Assembly: GCA_964510945.1 (NCBI GenBank) | Contig: CAZEED010000001.1 | Location: 98,774-162,773, forward strand | Source: an uncultured Candidatus Saccharibacteria bacterium | Lineage (GTDB): Bacteria; Patescibacteriota; Saccharimonadia; Saccharimonadales; JAGQNJ01 | Length of the DNA: 64,000 bases | Reading direction: 5' to 3' | Shown: one piece after another, positions 4,096-62,220 of the stretch | Layout of the letters: the number at the start of each line of letters is the position of its first letter | Position numbering within the stretch: position 1 is the stretch's first letter | Position numbers and translations under genes: made by a program | The notes under the pieces: model-generated | Database searches by the model: none | What the model saw: the letters and a program-made list of their open reading frames with translations, nothing else | What the model was told of the DNA's origin: nothing

Positions 4096-4137
4096 GCGAG
4101 TACTTCATCTTTATAGATACGCTTTCGAACAAACATA

Positions 4138-4175
4138 TTGGCACTCTTGACATGAGAGTGCTAATTTCATAATAT
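4138..4175 (+). promoter_or_regulatory. CIRCE-like operator (TTGGCACTC-N9-GAGTGCTAA) overlapping a sigma70-like promoter (-35 TTGACA 4147-4152, 17 nt spacer, -10 TAATAT 4170-4175) upstream of clpC
   Basis: 8/9 and 9/9 match to the CIRCE half-sites with the canonical 9-nt spacer. The spacer carries the -35 hexamer. Confidence 0.6.
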
Positions 4176-20030: not shown

Positions 20031-20408
20031 ATGTCAAGGAAACCCGAATTAAACTTTGAAGACGTTCGTTCAAATGAAGATTTAGTGAATCTAGGTGTTG
20101 AGCTAGAAAGAAGATACCCTGAGCTTGAACTTGGAATTCTAACAGTCATGTCAAGATACATTGATACACAAAGAGGACCGAATGATGTTGATAACGCAGT
20201 TAACGGATTAAAAAGTTTGGTTATGAGCGGCATCGATCATAGCGACATGACTGAACAAGTAGTACAACCTCATGGTAGCGCACTTACCTCAACTACGTAC
20301 AGAAGGCTCGAAAGACGAGGAATCCTACCTGCTTTTCGGGTTGACGTATCGAAGTCGTCAGCACCAGATCATGGGGTCATTGGAAAGATCTTAACACGTA
20401 AAAACTAG
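20031..20408 (+). CDS. Hypothetical protein (about 125 aa), possibly translated from a leaderless mRNA
   Basis: ORF between tig and clpP. No recognisable motifs. Stop overlaps the CIRCE-like element. Confidence 0.35.
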
Positions 20409-20431
20409 CACTCTTGACACGAGAGTGCCAA
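20405..20431 (+). promoter_or_regulatory. CIRCE-like operator (CTAGCACTC-N9-GAGTGCCAA) with embedded TTGACA -35 upstream of clpP
   Basis: Matches the CIRCE consensus TTAGCACTC-N9-GAGTGCTAA at 16/18 positions. Lies 40 nt before the clpP ATG. Confidence 0.6.
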
Positions 20432-20470
20432 TTAATGTATTCTATTTGTACAATAAAAGGAGAGAAAATA

Positions 20471-21070
20471 ATGTCCACGAAAGCATCATCAGTATTAATC
20501 CCGACAGTTATTGAATCAGATGGTAGAGTTGAACGGGCTTATGATATATATTCGCGTTTACTCAAAGATCGAATTATATTTTTAGGCACAGACGTTAACG
20601 AGCACACTGCTAATTTAATTGTTGCTCAATTGCTGTTTCTTGAGTCTGAAGACCCAAAGAAAGATATTAAGCTATATATCAATAGTCCAGGTGGTAGTGT
20701 TTATGACGCTCTGGCAATTTATGACACTATGCAGTTTGTAAAAAACGACATAGAGACGGTTGGAATCGGTATCCAAGCTAGTGCAGCGGCATTTTTATTA
20801 AGCTCTGGAACTAAAGGTAAGCGGTTTTTGCTAAAAAACGCCACGGCAATGATCCATCAGCCTTCAGCAGGTACTCGTGGCAAGGTTACTGATATGGAGA
20901 TTGACCTTAAAGAAGGTATAAGAATTAAGCATAAATTAAACGAAATTATGGCCAAAAATACCGGTAAACCTATCAAGCAAGTCGAAAAAGACATGGACCG
21001 AGATTATTGGATGACATCTGATGAAGCAGTAAAATACGGCCTAGCCGACAAAGTCATCACCAACCGCTAA
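20471..21070 (+). CDS. clpP: ATP-dependent Clp protease proteolytic subunit
   Basis: ClpP family (Ser-His-Asp protease fold, GxSxG region with ASAAAF, MIHQP). ATG 20471 with AAAGGAGAG RBS, in frame with the longer track ORF. Confidence 0.9.
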
Positions 21071-21682: not shown

Positions 21683-21696
21683 TCTTGGATCAATAA

Positions 21697-21786
21697 ATCT
21701 ATGAAGACACGGATAGGGATTACTGGATGACTTCGGACGAAGCAGTAAAATACGGTCTAGCCGACAAAGTCATCACAAACCGTTAG
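21697..21786 (+). pseudogene. Diverged duplicate of the clpP 3' end (encodes [29 protein letters not shown])
   Basis: About 80 nt alignable to clpP 20990-21070. Many synonymous differences, with the encoded peptide identical except for a single Met-to-Thr substitution. Confidence 0.7.
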
Positions 21787-34080: not shown

Positions 34081-34881
34081 TTATCTTGTGATGTCCGTTT
34101 CGAATTGTCTCAGGTAATATCCATTACTGTCGTGTTCTTGTGGTTTTGTTGGTTCAAAGATTTTAATAGATGCCAGTTCAATGCCACCTTCAGGTACTTT
34201 AATGAAGAGTTTTGCTTTTATGGATTTTTTTATTCTTACCGCGTATTGTCCTCGATGTATTGGCTCACTCTGCGGATGTGATCTAGGTACGACAGATTTA
34301 TAGCCAACATCATAAAAACCCCAGCAAGCAATTTCGCGATACCGATTAGGATCGCTTTCATATCGATGGGTGAAATTTATATGATATGCTCCATCCTTGG
34401 TCCCCCACACTTTATTGATATCTCTACTCAAACGTAGTTTTATGGTTGTATTCTTTTCTAGAGCTCGCCAGCAAACATACACAGCCATTGGACGTTTTGA
34501 TGTAGGAATGGTAAACCATTTACTGAAGTAGACCCATCCTTCGTTATCTAGAGTGTGTTTTTCATCGGCGTGATTCATCCTCCAACCATCAATCATAGGG
34601 CCACCTGGTTTAGCGGGCATACGAATATTCCCGCCTTGAGATTTAACCGATACTAACTTACCTCTGTAATACTTGAATGGTGTGGGTTTGTAATTAACTA
34701 TTTTTCCCGCAGCATAGGTTTTATTATATCGTTTAGAATCCGCCGACGAATCTTTTAGATTCAGCAAATCCATACTAAAAATAACAAGTCCAATTACGAA
34801 TATTAATATAATTGAAAAAGTTATAATTTTTGATTTATTTGATAATTTAAGATCCTTATTTTTCTTTTTTTTGTTTGCCAT
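34081..34881 (-). CDS. Paralog B of the same family (266 aa)
   Basis: MANKKKKNK..signal-anchor..IRMPAKPGGPMIDGWR..MAVYVCWR..IACWGFYD. AAGGA RBS. A8 tract in codons 3-6. Confidence 0.7.
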   Translation of the reverse strand: MANKKKKNKDLKLSNKSKIITFSIILIFVIGLVIFSMDLLNLKDSSADSKRYNKTYAAGKIVNYKPTPFKYYRGKLVSVKSQGGNIRMPAKPGGPMIDGWRMNHADEKHTLDNEGWVYFSKWFTIPTSKRPMAVYVCWRALEKNTTIKLRLSRDINKVWGTKDGAYHINFTHRYESDPNRYREIACWGFYDVGYKSVVPRSHPQSEPIHRGQYAVRIKKSIKAKLFIKVPEGGIELASIKIFEPTKPQEHDSNGYYLRQFETDITR

Positions 34882-34912
34882 ATTTGTCCTTAGCTACATT
34901 TATTAGTTATCT

Positions 34913-35842
34913 TTAATTGGTGATGTCAGATTCAAACTGTCTATCGTAATAATTTGCACCGAGTTTAGATCTTTCAGGCGGTTGTGTTGGGTGAAAAACT
35001 TTTATTGAAGCAATTTCTACTTGGCCACGAACCTTTATATTAATTCTAGCCTTAATGGATTTGGATTTATTCATTTTTTTCATGTATTGCCCTGGATATA
35101 TTGGCTCGTTTTGCGGATGTGATCTAGGCACGACACGTTCATAGGCGATATCGTAAAAACCCCAACATTTTATTTTTTGCCACTCATCGTCACCATGTTC
35201 ATAACGATGTATATAGTTCATTATAGGCGCGCCATTTTTGTCTGACCATAATTCTCGTCTATTCTTGTTACTGAGCGTAGGACCTGCGAATAGAAGTTTT
35301 AATGATGTTTCTTTGCCGGACAATGATCTCCAGCAGACATATAAAGCTAGCGGTTTATCACTCTTGTCTTTTGGGATATTTATTTCTTTTGAAAAATAAG
35401 ACCAGTCAGGTAAATATGTAGTAAGTCTAGGGTTTACAGCTTTTTTATTGGGTTTTAACTTTTTAAAAAGTTTATCGTAGGTTGATGAGTTAACTAATGG
35501 CGATCGCCATCCCTTAATCATAGGACCTCCTGGTTTGGCAGGCATTCTTATGTTCTTTCCTAAAGATTTCATCATTACAAAATCATCGTCGCCGTATATT
35601 CCGCTATCTTTACGAACTTTTGTTTTGCCGTAGTTAACGATTTCGCCGGCTGGGTAAGTTCTATTGTAATTCTTAGAATCTGCAGATGAGTCTCTTAGAT
35701 TCAGCAAATCCATACTATAAATTAATAATGCAAGTACAATTACTAATAAAATTGAAAAAGTTATAATTTTTGTTTTATTTGATAATTTAAGATTCTTATT
35801 TTTCTTTTTTTGTTTGGCATTTTCTCTCCTATACTTAAGCAT
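34913..35842 (-). CDS. Paralog C of the same family (~309 aa from ATG 35842; track TTG at 35869)
   Basis: About 45% identity to paralog B overall, but near-identical DNA over the first ~60 codons and upstream region. Has an A7 tract where paralog B has A8. Confidence 0.65.
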   Translation of the reverse strand: MLKYRRENAKQKKKNKNLKLSNKTKIITFSILLVIVLALLIYSMDLLNLRDSSADSKNYNRTYPAGEIVNYGKTKVRKDSGIYGDDDFVMMKSLGKNIRMPAKPGGPMIKGWRSPLVNSSTYDKLFKKLKPNKKAVNPRLTTYLPDWSYFSKEINIPKDKSDKPLALYVCWRSLSGKETSLKLLFAGPTLSNKNRRELWSDKNGAPIMNYIHRYEHGDDEWQKIKCWGFYDIAYERVVPRSHPQNEPIYPGQYMKKMNKSKSIKARINIKVRGQVEIASIKVFHPTQPPERSKLGANYYDRQFESDITN

Positions 35843-37402: not shown

Positions 37403-37789
37403 ATGGCTGAAGCCGATAAGACACAACCAACAAAAAAGCCAGCAGCAAAGTCTGCTGATCTAAAAGAAAAGGCCGTAGCTTCTACGAGTCAAAGGATTCG
37501 GATCCGATTAAAGGCTTATGATCATAAAGTAATTGATCAGGCTACAAAACAAATTGTCGATACTGCAATTCGTACAGGTGCTAATATTGCAGGACCAATC
37601 CCACTGCCAACAAGAAGAACCGTCTATACAGTCGTAAAAAGTCCGCATGTCTTTAAAAAAGGCCGAGAGCAGTTCGAGATGCGTACGCACAAACGACTCA
37701 TTGACGTATTAGAACCAACCCCTAAGACAATTGACTCGTTAATGAACCTAAGTCTGCCCGCTGGTTGCGATGCAGAAATTAAAATGTAG
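37403..37789 (+). CDS. rpsJ: 30S ribosomal protein S10 with ~30 aa Lys/Ala-rich N-terminal extension
   Basis: Core [20 protein letters not shown] 37403 with AAAGAAAGG RBS. Confidence 0.9.
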
Positions 37790-37798
37790 ATTTCTTGT

Positions 37799-37990
37799 AT
37801 ACTTTTGTGCCGGCAAAAGTATGGCAAAACCTCGGGCTATCCGTTTGTCTTTACATATCTTCTTGTCAATAATCACAACAGCCTGCGGAACTCATCCGCC
37901 TGCTGGCGGACTCAAACAGTCCTCGGCATTCTAGTTGTGATTTTGACGAAGTTAATCAGGACAAGCCGGAGGCCCAAACAACATCATCGA
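37799..37990 (+). ncRNA. Structured RNA-like element, copy 1 (5' module only), homologous to 53015-53220
   Basis: Shared hairpin ATACTTTTG-loop-CAAAAGTAT. Conserved blocks CTCGGGCT, ACAACAGYCTGCGGAACTC, ACAGTCCTCG. One hairpin kept by compensatory change (tccgcc/ggcgga here, ccccgcacc/ggtgcgggg in copy 2). Confidence 0.35.
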
Positions 37991-38013
37991 AAATATAATG
38001 ATACAATACGTTT

Positions 38014-38277
38014 ATGGCAAAAAAACAAAAACGTATAAGAGAAACAGACGATGCATATTTCTTAAAACTAGTATTATTCATGATCTTGGGATCAATGTGG
38101 TTAAAAGTCAGTGATGGTCAATCTTGGCAAATTCCGTTACCCATAGGACTAGTTTTCGGAATACTACTGGCGAGACATGACCATTTTAGGATAGATCGTA
38201 AAATAGAATATGCTGTGCTACTAATTGCAGCGTTTGTGGGTTTTTGGGCGCCAATAGGGATTTATATTAATCTGTAA
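38014..38277 (+). CDS. Hypothetical small membrane protein (87 aa, 2 TM) inserted between rpsJ and rplC
   Basis: Two hydrophobic helices. Weak RBS. Confidence 0.4.
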   Translation: MAKKQKRIRETDDAYFLKLVLFMILGSMWLKVSDGQSWQIPLPIGLVFGILLARHDHFRIDRKIEYAVLLIAAFVGFWAPIGIYINL

Positions 38278-38433
38278 TATACACAACATATTGACAGAGG
38301 TAAGTTATTCGTGTTAATCTGTTATGGTATCAAGAAAAACCTTGGTGATTCTAGTGAAGGTTTGCTCGTTTTAACAGGGGCAAAAACCACATAAGAGCCA
38401 ATTTTTTTATGCAAATAAACGAAAGGTTAGATA

Positions 38434-52132: not shown

Positions 52133-52573
52133 ATGAAAACTTATAGTGCCAAAAATACCGATGTAGAACGCAAATGGTGGCTGGTTGATGCTTCTGATTT
52201 AACTTTAGGTAGATTATCAACTGTTATTGCGACAAAACTCACAGGCAAAGATAAACCTATATTTAGCCCTCACGTTGATTGTGGCGACTATGTAGTAGTA
52301 ATAAACTCAGATAAATTAGTAGTTACTGGCGATAAACTTAACAAAAAGACTTATTATCGACATAGTGGCTTCCCTGGAAATCTTAAAGAGTCTAGCCTTC
52401 AAGAGCAAATCGATAAGGATTCGAGAAACGTAATTATATACTCGGTACGCGGAATGCTACCTAAAAACAAGTTACAAGACCCTAGAATAAAACGATTAAA
52501 AGTGTACGCTGGACCTGAGCACGATAACACCGCACAACAGCCAACAACGCTAAATCTTAAGGAAGGTAAATAA
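52133..52573 (+). CDS. rplM: 50S ribosomal protein L13
   Basis: L13 family sequence. Confidence 0.93.
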   Translation: MKTYSAKNTDVERKWWLVDASDLTLGRLSTVIATKLTGKDKPIFSPHVDCGDYVVVINSDKLVVTGDKLNKKTYYRHSGFPGNLKESSLQEQIDKDSRNVIIYSVRGMLPKNKLQDPRIKRLKVYAGPEHDNTAQQPTTLNLKEGK

Positions 52574-52974
52574 TGGCTATAAAAAACGCATATTTCTATG
52601 GTTTAGGACGAAGAAAAAGTGCCTCAGCACGAGTCAGGATTTCGGGCGGTAGCGGAAAATTCATTATCAATGATCACACAGCTGAAGATTATTTCGCTAA
52701 TAGTAAAAATTTGCTAAATGAACTAACAAAACCATTTACTGCGGTTGATCTAGTTAATAAGTTTGATGTTAGCGTTAAAGTTATTGGTGGAGGACACAGT
52801 GGACAAGCTGATGCCATTATCCTAGGTATTTCAAAAGCACTTGCAGTTATGAACGAAGATCTTAGAAGCACATTGCGTCGTGCAGACCTACTCGGTCGCG
52901 ATCCAAGAGAGAAAGAACGTAAGAAGTTCGGACTCAAGGGCGCTCGTAAACAAAGACAGTTCACAAAACGATAA
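52573..52974 (+). CDS. rpsI: 30S ribosomal protein S9
   Basis: S9 family with the GGGxxGQ motif. ATGA overlap with rplM. Confidence 0.93.
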   Translation: MAIKNAYFYGLGRRKSASARVRISGGSGKFIINDHTAEDYFANSKNLLNELTKPFTAVDLVNKFDVSVKVIGGGHSGQADAIILGISKALAVMNEDLRSTLRRADLLGRDPREKERKKFGLKGARKQRQFTKR

Positions 52975-53014
52975 TTTTCAAATTTTTGAGTAAAATAACA
53001 TTTTCGCAGTTTCA

Positions 53015-53392
53015 ATACTTTTGACCGCCAAAAGTATGACAAAAGCTCGGGCTTAACGTTTTTTCTTGACTAACTCACTAGTCAAGACAAACAACAGTCT
53101 GCGGAACTCCCCCGCACCTATTGCTTAGACAAAAGGTGCGGGGTCAGACAGTCCTCGCCTGATAGTTGTTTGTTTGACCTGAGTCATCAGGAAAAAGCCG
53201 ATGCCCAACACAAAAAACAACCCCGCAACGTTAGTCTGGTCGTTGGCCAGATAAACGATGAGTATTACATATTGTTGGCATCCGGCTTGTCCTGAATAAC
53301 TTCGTTAAAGTAACAACAAAAAAGGCGAGGACTGTTTGAAGTTAGTAGTATGCCTGAGTGGCATATTACTAACAAGTTTCGCAGTCTGTTGT
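53015..53392 (+). ncRNA. Structured RNA-like element, copy 2 (full length ~380 nt) with nested long-range helices
   Basis: 5' module homologous to 37799-37990. 16-bp helix 53145-53160/53323-53338. 13-bp helix 53091-53103/53380-53392. Local hairpins 53015-53037, 53067-53088, 53110-53143, 53344-53368. No ORF. Confidence 0.35.
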
Positions 53393-53657
53393 TATCTTTA
53401 ACTAGAAGTTATATAAAGACAAACGAAAAGCCAAGAGTTTTGTATTACTTTGGCGATACAAAGTAATAGTTTTTGAATTATATTTACAAAATTTCTGACA
53501 TGATTGATAATACTTGACAAATTATATATGAAGCTGTATTGTCTTATGGTTATGTTTCAAAACATTATAAACAACACAACTTATTGGTTTACCTCCAAAT
53601 ATTCATGGCGGCAAACTTCGTATTGTCTATAAAATAACAAACTATCAAGAAATATTA

Positions 53658-53680
53658 ACCGCCACCAAGGCGGTTTTTTA
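53658..53680 (+). terminator. Rho-independent terminator (accgcc/ggcggt + T6) upstream of the GC-richer cassette
   Basis: 6-bp GC stem, 5-nt loop, T-tract. Lies 20 nt before the ATG at 53700. Confidence 0.6.
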
Positions 53681-53699
53681 ATAGTAAAGGAGAATAATC

Positions 53700-61611: not shown

Positions 61612-61688
61612 GCCGCCTTAGCTCAGTTGGTTAGAGCGACGGTTTTGTAAACCGTAGGTCGTCGGTTCGAATCCGACAGGCGGCTCCA
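61612..61688 (+). tRNA. tRNA-Thr (anticodon TGT), encoded CCA
   Basis: Acceptor gccgcct/aggcggc. Anticodon loop tttgtaa. T-arm ggttcgaatcc. Confidence 0.9.
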
Positions 61689-61803
61689 AAAGAGACGTAT
61701 GCAACTTTATGTTACAGGCGGCTCCACAGAAAACTTCTACTAGTTTACTGGAGAGAAGTTTTCGAGGAAGCAACTGCAGCCCGAAGGGCTACAGGCGGCT
61801 CCA
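61676..61803 (+). repeat. Three direct copies of the 13-nt tRNA-Thr 3' end (ACAGGCGGCTCCA) at 61676, 61714 and 61791
   Basis: Exact 13-mer ×3. Spacers of 25 and 64 nt contain small hairpins. Confidence 0.6.
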
Positions 61804-61918
61804 TCCTTCGTCGCTGAAGCTATGAAGGATAAACATATAGAATGCCATGCGAGAGCATTCTAGAACATTTGAGGTGAGTTCAGAGAAGTGTTGACGACCC
61901 GAAACTCGGGTCGTTTAC

Positions 61919-62004
61919 GCAGGGTTAGTGAAGCGGTCAAACACGGCAGACTGTAAATCTGCTGGCTTATGCCTTCGTAGGTTCGAATCCTACACCCTGC
62001 ACCA
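61919..62004 (+). tRNA. tRNA-Tyr (anticodon GTA), long variable arm, encoded CCA
   Basis: Acceptor gcagggt/accctgc. Anticodon loop ctgtaaa. Long extra arm. Confidence 0.9.
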
Positions 62005-62011
62005 ACTATAG

Positions 62012-62037
62012 AATCCCGCATTTGTGGGATTTTTTAG
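62012..62037 (+). terminator. Terminator-like hairpin (atcccgca/tgtgggat) + T6 after tRNA-Tyr
   Basis: 8-bp stem with one G-T pair, then TTTTTT. Confidence 0.5.
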
Positions 62038-62143
62038 TTGGTCCTGATTAATAAATTCGAACCGACAGGCGAGAACAGTCGGGGACTGTTTGAGTTATAA
62101 ATATTTATAGCGAGATGCTTTAGCTCTCGAGCGGATAAATCAA

Positions 62144-62166
62144 TTCGAGTCCTACACCCTGCACCA
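62144..62166 (+). repeat. Duplicate of the tRNA-Tyr 3' end (22/23 nt) 140 nt downstream of the gene
   Basis: ttcgagtcctacaccctgcacca versus ttcgaatcctacaccctgcacca. A partial tRNA-Thr-like 3' fragment also lies at 62045-62060. Confidence 0.6.
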
Positions 62167-62220
62167 ATTCTGTAAAGTATTAAGGACGTCAGAACCGCGT
62201 CCTTTTGTTATAGTAGAGTC

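Follow-up and report, generated by a model that had tools for sequence, protein, structure and literature searches.

A dispersed, structure-constrained intergenic repeat beside rpsJ and rpsI of a Saccharibacteria-like genome, with relatives in many bacterial phyla

What is the repeated sequence that separates rpsJ from rplC in a Saccharibacteria-like genome, and why does it occur again after rpsI? The question arises in the window, a stretch of 64,000 nt (contig CAZEED010000001.1, positions 98,774-162,773 of the forward strand, assembly GCA_964510945.1) which is the ribosomal-protein region of this genome; related loci bear Saccharibacteria titles. In the initial annotation, positions 37799-37990 were described as a truncated copy of an element at 53015-53220, both placed on the sense strand of ribosomal-protein genes. 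It was found instead that this sequence, here called U1, is one member of a multi-copy, non-coding and dispensable repeat that is constrained in its structure, prefers the 3' ends of genes, forms inverted pairs, occurs across phyla and is not in Rfam. With modest confidence, we read the U1 family as a non-autonomous mobile element akin to transposable elements of the miniature inverted-repeat type (MITEs) or to the REPIN type of repetitive extragenic palindromic (REP) sequence; it would act in a folded single-stranded form, of which the invariant loop would be recognised or cut.

Units of the repeat and their fold

Three full units, U1, U2 and U3, and one decayed piece are present in the 64 kb (Table 1). 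U1 begins 10 nt past the stop codon of rpsJ (37789) and ends ahead of the start of a small open reading frame (ORF), orf87 (38014), and U2 begins 41 nt past the stop codon of rpsI (52974); the remark that the copies start just after ribosomal-protein genes is accurate as to position. The homology of 37799-37995 with 53015-53220 was confirmed by blastn (77.7% over 103 nt, E=4e-14, and 71% over 77 nt, E=8e-4) and by global alignment (81% identity, 185 aligned nt), and every shared block that had been named is present. The match of U1 with U3 is better still (blastn, E=1e-20 over 188 nt), and identity among the three window copies is about 75-81%. A covariance model (R1), a check that the initial annotation had proposed, recovers exactly three full copies in the window (55.1, 55.0 and 39.7 bits). 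As had also been noted, the intervening hairpin is unrelated in sequence and equal in position, reading tccgcc/ggcgga in U1 and ccccgcacc/ggtgcgggg in U2.

The order of parts within a unit is an AU-rich P1 hairpin (ATACTTTTG ... CAAAAGTAT), a linker (GGCAAAAC) and a long imperfect hairpin of about 140 nt, the apex of which consists of CTGCGGAACTC, a variable hairpin and TCARACAGTCCTCG. U1 alone folds into the full long hairpin (-70.8 kcal/mol), as the other units do, and the 3' partner strands that U1 had been said to lack belong to U3, an inverted third copy at 53265-53472; U1 is hence a complete single unit and not a truncated one. U2 and U3 are arranged as an inverted pair, and the two together fold into a giant hairpin (-210 kcal/mol for 52990-53490, z=-15).

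Covariation was scored in an alignment (A3) of 99 distinct copies that were gathered by an exact core pattern, by which the invariance of the core is partly given by construction; the core can deviate, as in the Saccharibacteria variants at loci L139 and L204. In this alignment, the stem flanking the core and five apical pairs vary on both sides with pairing kept, and all four Watson-Crick combinations are present in the column immediately outside the core. The covariation score was 0.346, against 0.117 in shuffles (0 of 500 reached the observed score) and 0.09-0.11 when the partners were slid by 1-3 columns; a standard pair was present in 84.7% of the cells, compared with 70.2% in the shuffles. 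When the three window copies were compared with two Saccharibacteria relatives, 10 of 43 predicted pairs proved to be compensated. The stem sequence drifts freely, and a two-part core of about 25 nt around the variable apical hairpin is nearly fixed. These comparisons support the view, expressed already in the initial annotation, that the element is selected for its folded structure rather than being a duplicate in decay.

The strand that folds is probably the complement of the strand first read, because four independent asymmetries favour it. With RNA parameters, the complement folds better in 92 of the 99 copies (mean -37.5 versus -31.5 kcal/mol); DNA parameters favour it in 86 copies and the other strand in 11. 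The core can be drawn on the complement as a helix with 99.4% standard pairs and one invariant G.U, and its two polymorphic sites are there changes of C-G to U.G (9 and 7 copies); on the strand first read, one of these variants breaks a pair. C(GNA)G triloops are found at the apex 18 times on the complement and 0 times on the other strand, and transition mismatches of the outer arms are wobble-compatible in 132 cases on the complement versus 99 (p ~0.03 by a binomial estimate). Over the outer arms as a whole, wobble pairs are scarce (about 2-3% of positions) and mismatches other than transitions are numerous. On the better-folding strand, the invariant core reads CGAGGACUGUYUGA, hairpin, GAGUUCCGCAG, with tandem G.A pairs that can be drawn beside an asymmetric bulge. 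Since G.T wobbles and GNA triloops stabilise single-stranded DNA as well, and not RNA alone, the asymmetries fit RNA and single-stranded DNA alike. If the complement folds, U1 and U2 have their folding strand antisense to rpsJ and rpsI, and U3 alone has it in sense orientation; the assignment of the element to the sense strand is thus probably wrong.

Distribution, surroundings and strain variation

An exact scan for the core pattern CTGCGRAACT-N14-44-TCARACAGTCC, carried out on one genome per species, matched more than 120 genome stretches at least, among the matches listed, from many phyla; the figure is a lower bound and the breadth is larger. Among the hosts are Gamma- and Betaproteobacteria, many classes of Patescibacteria, Actinomycetota (mostly Coriobacteriia), Bacillota, Bacteroidota, Spirochaetota, Myxococcota, Chloroflexota, Nitrospirota, Omnitrophota, Planctomycetota, Campylobacterota and Melainabacteria, with isolates and complete chromosomes represented. 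The covariance model gave 127 matches with E<0.01 in 100 loci. By chance about 34 matches are expected over the whole 596 Gb at uniform base composition, and those listed come from less than that. Nearly all matches have in addition certain bases that the pattern leaves free (C after AACT and TCG after GTCC, each conserved to at least 89%) and complementary arms on both sides of the core (median of 30 aligned positions, 83% Watson-Crick pairs), which are perfect inverted repeats over 44-57 bp in some copies; a handful of matches (e.g. L020, L129 and L133) resemble chance. Viral contigs held 6 pattern matches only, at least two of them apparently chance. Several metagenome-assembled genomes (MAGs) have copies on several contigs, and many matches lie at contig ends, as repeats would give.

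Unit length is about 190-250 nt across the family. P1 occurs also in U2, U3, the Saccharibacteria loci L042, L125 and L204, a Chloroflexi locus and Rhodocyclales loci, and P1 with the linker can be made out in Rhodocyclales and in one MAG each of Chloroflexi and Melainabacteria. The base composition of the stems follows the host: Patescibacteria and Arcobacteraceae have AT-rich stems, Betaproteobacteria and Actinomycetota GC-rich ones, which argues against contamination or very recent transfer. Two variant cores were met: at L139, in the rpsJ-rplC spacer, the core reads GGAACTC-hairpin-TCAAACATCC and has no CTGCG, and at L204 (1882-1988) CTGCGGAACTC and AGTCCTCGCC are kept and the TCAAAC bulge is missing. 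The family is therefore wider than the exact pattern.

Searches for earlier traces of the element gave little. A unit from Dechloromonas gave no BLAST match in annotated collections of plasmids and E. coli genomes, a weak negative, since blocks as short as the conserved ones escape blastn. The core strings of both strands returned primers and unrelated items only, in a literature search whose scope lay outside subscription journals and ISfinder-type repeat databases; keyword searches of the literature found nothing relevant, and an earlier description under another name is possible.

In GC-rich genomes (L055, L087, L108, L116) the repeat is translated into spurious ORFs (e.g. ...RLRNS...LRQSSP...), for which no Pfam family was found; their 236 homologues are all labelled 'hypothetical protein' and come mostly from Gallionella-like metagenomes. 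Coding potential was rejected, as the lengths of the variable hairpin keep no reading frame across copies. Between two inverted units at L055 (3330-4043) lies an ORF of 237 amino acids of no known family.

The copies are intergenic, lie mostly at the 3' ends of genes and are tied to no protein gene. Among ORFs within 2.5 kb of the copies, no blastp cluster spanned more than 4 loci, and the 150 nearest genes gave 206 Pfam families, unrelated and mostly housekeeping, including trigger factor, SecY, RuvB, citrate synthase and formate-tetrahydrofolate ligase; the 25 most frequent of these families, as listed, contain no transposase or integrase and no Y1 transposase or RAYT-like family. A tie of the element to ribosomal-protein genes, as first supposed, is not borne out by such neighbours. 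An association with tRNA genes was rejected too (5 tRNAs in 60 loci, none adjacent). Single units stand between convergent genes in 23 cases, co-directional genes in 39 and divergent genes in 6; within the 39, the motif as first read is sense in 24 and antisense in 15, a split that is not significant. Where units are adjacent, 19 inverted pairs have P1 outside, like U2/U3, versus 2 with the opposite arrangement. Five Rhodocyclales genomes carry the pair amid unrelated flanks; its outer ends are conserved among them and its centres are unrelated in sequence. Pairs set further apart enclose ordinary or uncharacterised genes and no transposase, and the idea of a cargo was rejected.

Strain comparisons gave a direct view of presence and absence. 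Contigs with identical RpsI show three arrangements after rpsI: that of the window, with the U2/U3 pair; that of L217, L222 and L223, with no pair and a promoter-like site (TTGACA-17-TATTGT) 8 nt after the rpsI stop codon, which in the window lies about 540 nt further on; and that of L214, with no pair and another gene beginning 55 nt after rpsI. One 60-kb contig (L214/L224) has U1 and is devoid of the pair. In L225, L229 and L230, RpsJ and the flanking DNA are identical and U1 is replaced by a spacer; the spacer holds a proline-rich ORF of 50 amino acids (L225, 2202-2354). Since strains with identical RpsJ or RpsI are without U1 or the pair, these copies are dispensable, gained or lost between near-identical strains, and they do not follow the ribosomal-protein genes. 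The promoter-like site after rpsI belongs to a candidate small RNA gene (53483-53682), which has the site at 53514-53542, a stretch of about 130 nt with CCUCC and an intrinsic terminator at 53657-53682; it lies directly after the rpsI stop codon in L217, L222 and L223 and had no match in Rfam.

The same comparisons bear on the rpsJ-rplC junction, which the initial annotation had considered otherwise universal and split by the element. In the 37 of 80 Saccharibacteria relative loci in which both genes were located, the gap spans 165-2836 nt whether or not the element is there, and among all 80 S10 loci a copy was found only in L204 (tuf-rpsJ spacer), with a diverged copy in L139 (after rpsJ), so that 78 have none. 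As the gap is split across Saccharibacteria regardless of U1, the split junction is, on these comparisons, a feature of the lineage and not caused by U1. In this lineage, a conserved promoter-like sequence and a leader belonging to rplC lie ahead of it, which suggests that rplC heads an operon of its own. In the window, the promoter-like TTGACAGAGGT ... TAATCTGTTATGGTA and a possible structured leader occupy 38292-38433, a region that is common to many Saccharibacteria relatives and had no Rfam match. Homologues of orf87 are frequent inside the gap of relatives; they show 43-56% identity and lie downstream of rpsJ in about 25 of the 80, and orf87, for which a convincing Pfam family was not found, is probably a membrane protein.

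Known families and competing explanations

Known RNA families account for none of the copies examined. Against Rfam 15, the whole window gave 4 tRNAs only at gathering thresholds, both window loci gave chance-level matches only at E<=10, 18 loci from other phyla gave no family over the element, and a Dechloromonas pair gave none at E<=5; the match to a known RNA family that would have spoken against the initial annotation did not appear in these searches. The ribozyme models in Rfam 15 (hammerhead, hairpin, twister, twister-sister, pistol, hatchet and hepatitis delta virus-like) were unmatched. The element shares with small self-cleaving ribozymes and orphan RNA motifs a compact core between covarying helices, occurrence in many phyla and in multiple copies, frequent location within repeats and no consistent gene neighbourhood; it differs from the ribozymes in having two helices, not three or four. 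Three partial resemblances may serve as leads only: GACAGUCCU occurs as in the hairpin-ribozyme substrate, CUGUYUGA-stem-GAG recalls the hammerhead CUGANGA-stem-GAA, and the tandem G.A beside the bulge is k-turn-like but with a 5-nt loop. In topology and consensus, no fit was seen with the hairpin-ribozyme substrate, the hammerhead core, the k-turn, attC or Tn3/Tn7 ends, nor with parvoviral inverted terminal repeats, the Correia element or single-strand origins.

Among DNA repeats, the REP sequences, bacterial interspersed mosaic elements (BIMEs) and REPINs, which go with RAYT, a Y1 HUH transposase, are likewise multi-copy, extragenic, non-coding and strain-variable, lie at gene 3' ends, form hairpins and inverted doublets and are thought to act as single-stranded hairpins. 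REPs are 20-40 nt long, with a conserved 5' tetranucleotide of the GTAG type, and each is confined to one species or genus, whereas the present units are 190-250 nt long, conserve an internal apex loop and share a core across phyla; with this length, a different architecture and no Y1 transposase among the 25 most frequent neighbour families listed, membership of the REP/REPIN-RAYT system was rejected. The Correia/NEMIS elements of Neisseria and the ERIC, RUP and BOX repeats are similar in being non-coding, intergenic, palindromic repeats of 100-250 nt that are strain-polymorphic and, co-transcribed with their neighbours, form long RNA hairpins. Correia-type MITEs, however, have terminal inverted repeats and target-site duplications (e.g. 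TA) and keep to one genus or family; in the present element, no duplication was found, the termini are less conserved than the apical core and many phyla are concerned.

Features expected of a MITE are nevertheless seen: the element is small, non-coding and multi-copy, with presence/absence polymorphism between close relatives. As to terminal inverted repeats the picture is mixed: each unit is in itself a long imperfect palindrome, and pairs yield inverted repeats of about 200 nt whose outer ends are conserved; short repeats that would mark off the ends are missing from a single unit, P1 being one end. A classical MITE was not demonstrated, as target-site duplications were not found. Many further copies with terminal inverted repeats and such duplications had been named beforehand as a sign of a MITE; the copies exist and the duplications did not appear.

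The integron attC sites and the ends of IS200/IS605 elements also combine free stem sequence, conserved structure, bulges and a few conserved bases with one active strand and a variable apex. The attC consensus is RYYYAAC ... GTTRRRY, in arrays beside an intI gene; the element lacks the R/L boxes and cleavage motifs, has no adjacent integrase or TnpA, and its copies are scattered beside housekeeping genes, not arrayed. An attC identity was rejected because the R''/L''...L'/R' boxes are missing from the core and no integrase is among the most frequent neighbour families listed. Intrinsic terminators, too, were tried and rejected: none was called at U1, U2 or U3 on the sense strand. The complement of the linker in the window copies reads UUUUG after the long hairpin; family-wide, the T content after the hairpin is equal on the two strands (2.55 vs 2.54), and the terminator idea was discarded.

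If the U1 family is a non-autonomous mobile element of the MITE/REPIN kind, the repeat would behave selfishly and would be moved or copied in trans through its folded single-stranded form, and the invariant internal loop would be the site that a putative mobilising factor recognises or cuts. Co-transcribed copies would then put very stable stem-loops into the 3' regions of rpsJ and rpsI as a side effect and not as a purpose. Several points weigh against this account. An autonomous partner (transposase or recombinase) was found neither in the 8-kb neighbourhoods nor in the window, and with none seen the route of movement is pure inference. Target-site duplications were not found at the sites compared, which were both window sites (filled versus empty strains, with only a shared TTTTTGA in AT-rich DNA) and five Rhodocyclales pairs; at both window sites the entire spacer differs between strains, with no sharp insertion boundary. 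In ordinary MITEs the termini are the conserved part, whereas here it is the internal apex loop that is most conserved (in part, as said, by the way in which the copies were gathered), which would be expected of a functional RNA or single-stranded DNA motif. The host-like composition of the stems also points to long residence in each lineage rather than recent spread.

This conserved apex leads to a possible though tentatively held alternative, which overlaps with the mobile-element reading, namely that the core is a functional structured RNA in repeated form, the repeat spreading because of or along with the RNA function. The core might be a self-cleaving ribozyme, a signal for processing or stability that is cut by some universal RNase (e.g. 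RNase III), a module that binds protein, or a small RNA gene's body. Between the covarying helices lies an invariant internal loop of two parts and about 25 nt, as is typical of catalytic or binding RNA cores; the tandem G.A pairs can be drawn beside an asymmetric bulge, and conservation across phyla with no linked protein would fit chemistry or a universal host factor. The strand preference agrees with this alternative, in that the complement has the lower folding energy, by about 6 kcal/mol, in 92 of 99 copies, its core variants are all C-G to U.G with one G.U invariant, and the 18 C(GNA)G triloops have no counterpart on the other strand; as stated, however, single-stranded DNA would be stabilised by the same wobbles and triloops, and these asymmetries are no proof of RNA. 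A minus-strand promoter-like site at 38020-37992 (10 of 12 matches) would start a transcript at the U1 boundary, but such matches are at chance level in AT-rich DNA (6 found versus 4.0 expected), and no conserved promoter was found. An RNA function is further disfavoured by the lack of a significant orientation bias relative to neighbours (24 versus 15, co-directional), the dispensability of copies between near-identical strains, the scarcity of wobbles (about 2-3%) and wealth of non-transition mismatches in the outer arms, and a U-tract that is not family-wide. That the host uses the repeat as a REP/BIME-type DNA element is unlikely. The repeat would then be a cruciform or hairpin site bound by a DNA protein of universal occurrence (gyrase, a nucleoid protein or a recombinase); a role in chromosome organisation, or as a hot spot of recombination, would keep it in place, and homologous recombination of its flanks would pass it between strains. 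Intergenic location, enrichment at gene 3' ends, independence of orientation and inverted doublets suit this reading, as do arms that act as inverted repeats at the DNA level (some perfect over 44-57 bp) and the swapping of a whole spacer between strains with identical flanks; the strand asymmetry of the core is unexpected for a double-stranded binding site, the copies are dispensable, and no universal DNA-binding consensus is known to resemble the core.

Far less credible is the original proposal of a cis-acting RNA of ribosomal-protein operons, lying on the sense strand after rpsJ and rpsI, truncated in its first copy and splitting rpsJ from rplC. Both plus-strand copies do start 10-41 nt after ribosomal-protein stop codons, and a terminator scan of the window loci found no canonical terminator between rpsJ or rpsI and the element. 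Against this stand the unrelated genes beside other family members, the strains with identical RpsJ or RpsI and no copies, the 78 of 80 S10 loci of relatives that have none, the lineage-wide split of the junction with an rplC that has its own promoter-like sequence and leader, and the completeness of U1; the better-folding strand, moreover, is antisense for U1 and U2. The related candidate of a ribosomal-protein operon leader was rejected on the same absences from S10 loci and from strains with identical RpsJ or RpsI. Chance similarity or a functionless, decaying local duplication might be suspected from the identity of only about 75-81% among the window copies, yet it is hardly tenable in the face of E-values of 1e-14 to 1e-20 within 64 kb, compensated stems and more than 120 homologous loci at least, among the matches listed, in other phyla.

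A wider proposal, which we regard as doubtful at present, is that the core is a new pan-bacterial functional nucleic-acid motif, a self-cleaving or self-processing RNA or a site for a universal enzyme, that drives the spread of mobile hairpins. Known dispersed palindromic repeats (REP, ERIC, Correia, BOX and RUP) each stay within one genus or family. A 25-nt core that is near-constant from Patescibacteria to Proteobacteria, Actinomycetota and Bacteroidota, with covarying stems and no linked protein, would be unusual, and would imply that it relies either on some universal factor of the host or on chemistry intrinsic to the nucleic acid. If the proposal is true, a motif so far in neither RNA nor repeat catalogues drives the spread of hairpin elements from Patescibacteria to Proteobacteria. 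The 90-nt core and its covariance model offer a concrete object for tests of cleavage, binding and strand of action. For annotation, the units matter since they break assemblies, spawn spurious ORFs in GC-rich genomes and can be taken, as happened here, for gene-specific regulatory RNAs.

Feature coordinates and further observations in the window

Table 1. Positions of the repeat units, their parts and the adjacent genes in the window
Feature	Positions	Strand	Evidence and remarks
tuf	36035-37216		gene in the window
rpsJ	37403-37789	+	ORF and Pfam Ribosomal_S10; context only, no functional tie to the element
U1, complete single copy	37799-37995	+ as first read; complement folds better	nhmmer, blastn, R1 55.1 bits, E=1e-12
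U1, P1	37799-37822	+	sequence, fold; small AU-rich hairpin ATACTTTTG-TGCCGG-CAAAAGTAT, then linker GGCAAAAC
U1, core	37883-37925	+	CTGCGGAACTC 37883-37893, variable apical hairpin 37894-37911, TCAAACAGTCCTCG 37912-37925
orf87	38014-38277		small ORF between U1 and rplC
rplC	from 38434		gene in the window
rpsI	52573-52974	+	ORF and Pfam Ribosomal_S9; context only
U2, left member of inverted pair after rpsI	53015-53220	+	R1 55.0 bits
U2, parts	P1 53015-53037; core 53099-53157; variable hairpin 53110-53143		
U2/U3 spacer	53221-53264	.	non-repeated; apex of the giant U2/U3 hairpin
U3, inverted copy	53265-53472	-	alignment, inverted repeats, nhmmer, R1 39.7 bits
U3, parts	core 53326-53384; P1 53443-53468		
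Decayed partial unit, ACTCAAACAGTCCCCG ... TTAATCAGGACCAA	62039-62114	-	weak evidence: nhmmer E=0.0024

The decayed partial unit is seen by the covariance model R1 only at 62086-62114 (12.2 bits, E=0.22), and the profile search extends it to 62039. It sits between tRNA-Tyr and a 96% duplicate of the tRNA-Tyr 3' end (62144-62167), and the 140 nt between the two contain a terminator hairpin besides the decayed unit. In the same region (61612-62167), CAGGCGGCTCCA, which is the tRNA-Thr 3' end, recurs at about 61715 and about 61792. These duplicates of tRNA-Thr and tRNA-Tyr 3' ends look like scars of integrative elements.

Other parts of the window hold repeats of a different kind. Two inverted repeats at 4137-4167 and 20402-20432, TTGGCACTCTTGACATGAGAGTGCTAA and CTAGCACTCTTGACACGAGAGTGCCAA, resemble the CIRCE heat-shock operator, TTAGCACTC-N9-GAGTGCTAA. 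A diverged tandem duplication (34221-34890 versus 35062-35830, about 80% identity) comprises adjacent minus-strand ORFs, and a second one (20979-21069 versus 21695-21785, 84% identity) involves the 3' ends of two adjacent ORFs, in a part of the window where a Clp protease domain was detected.

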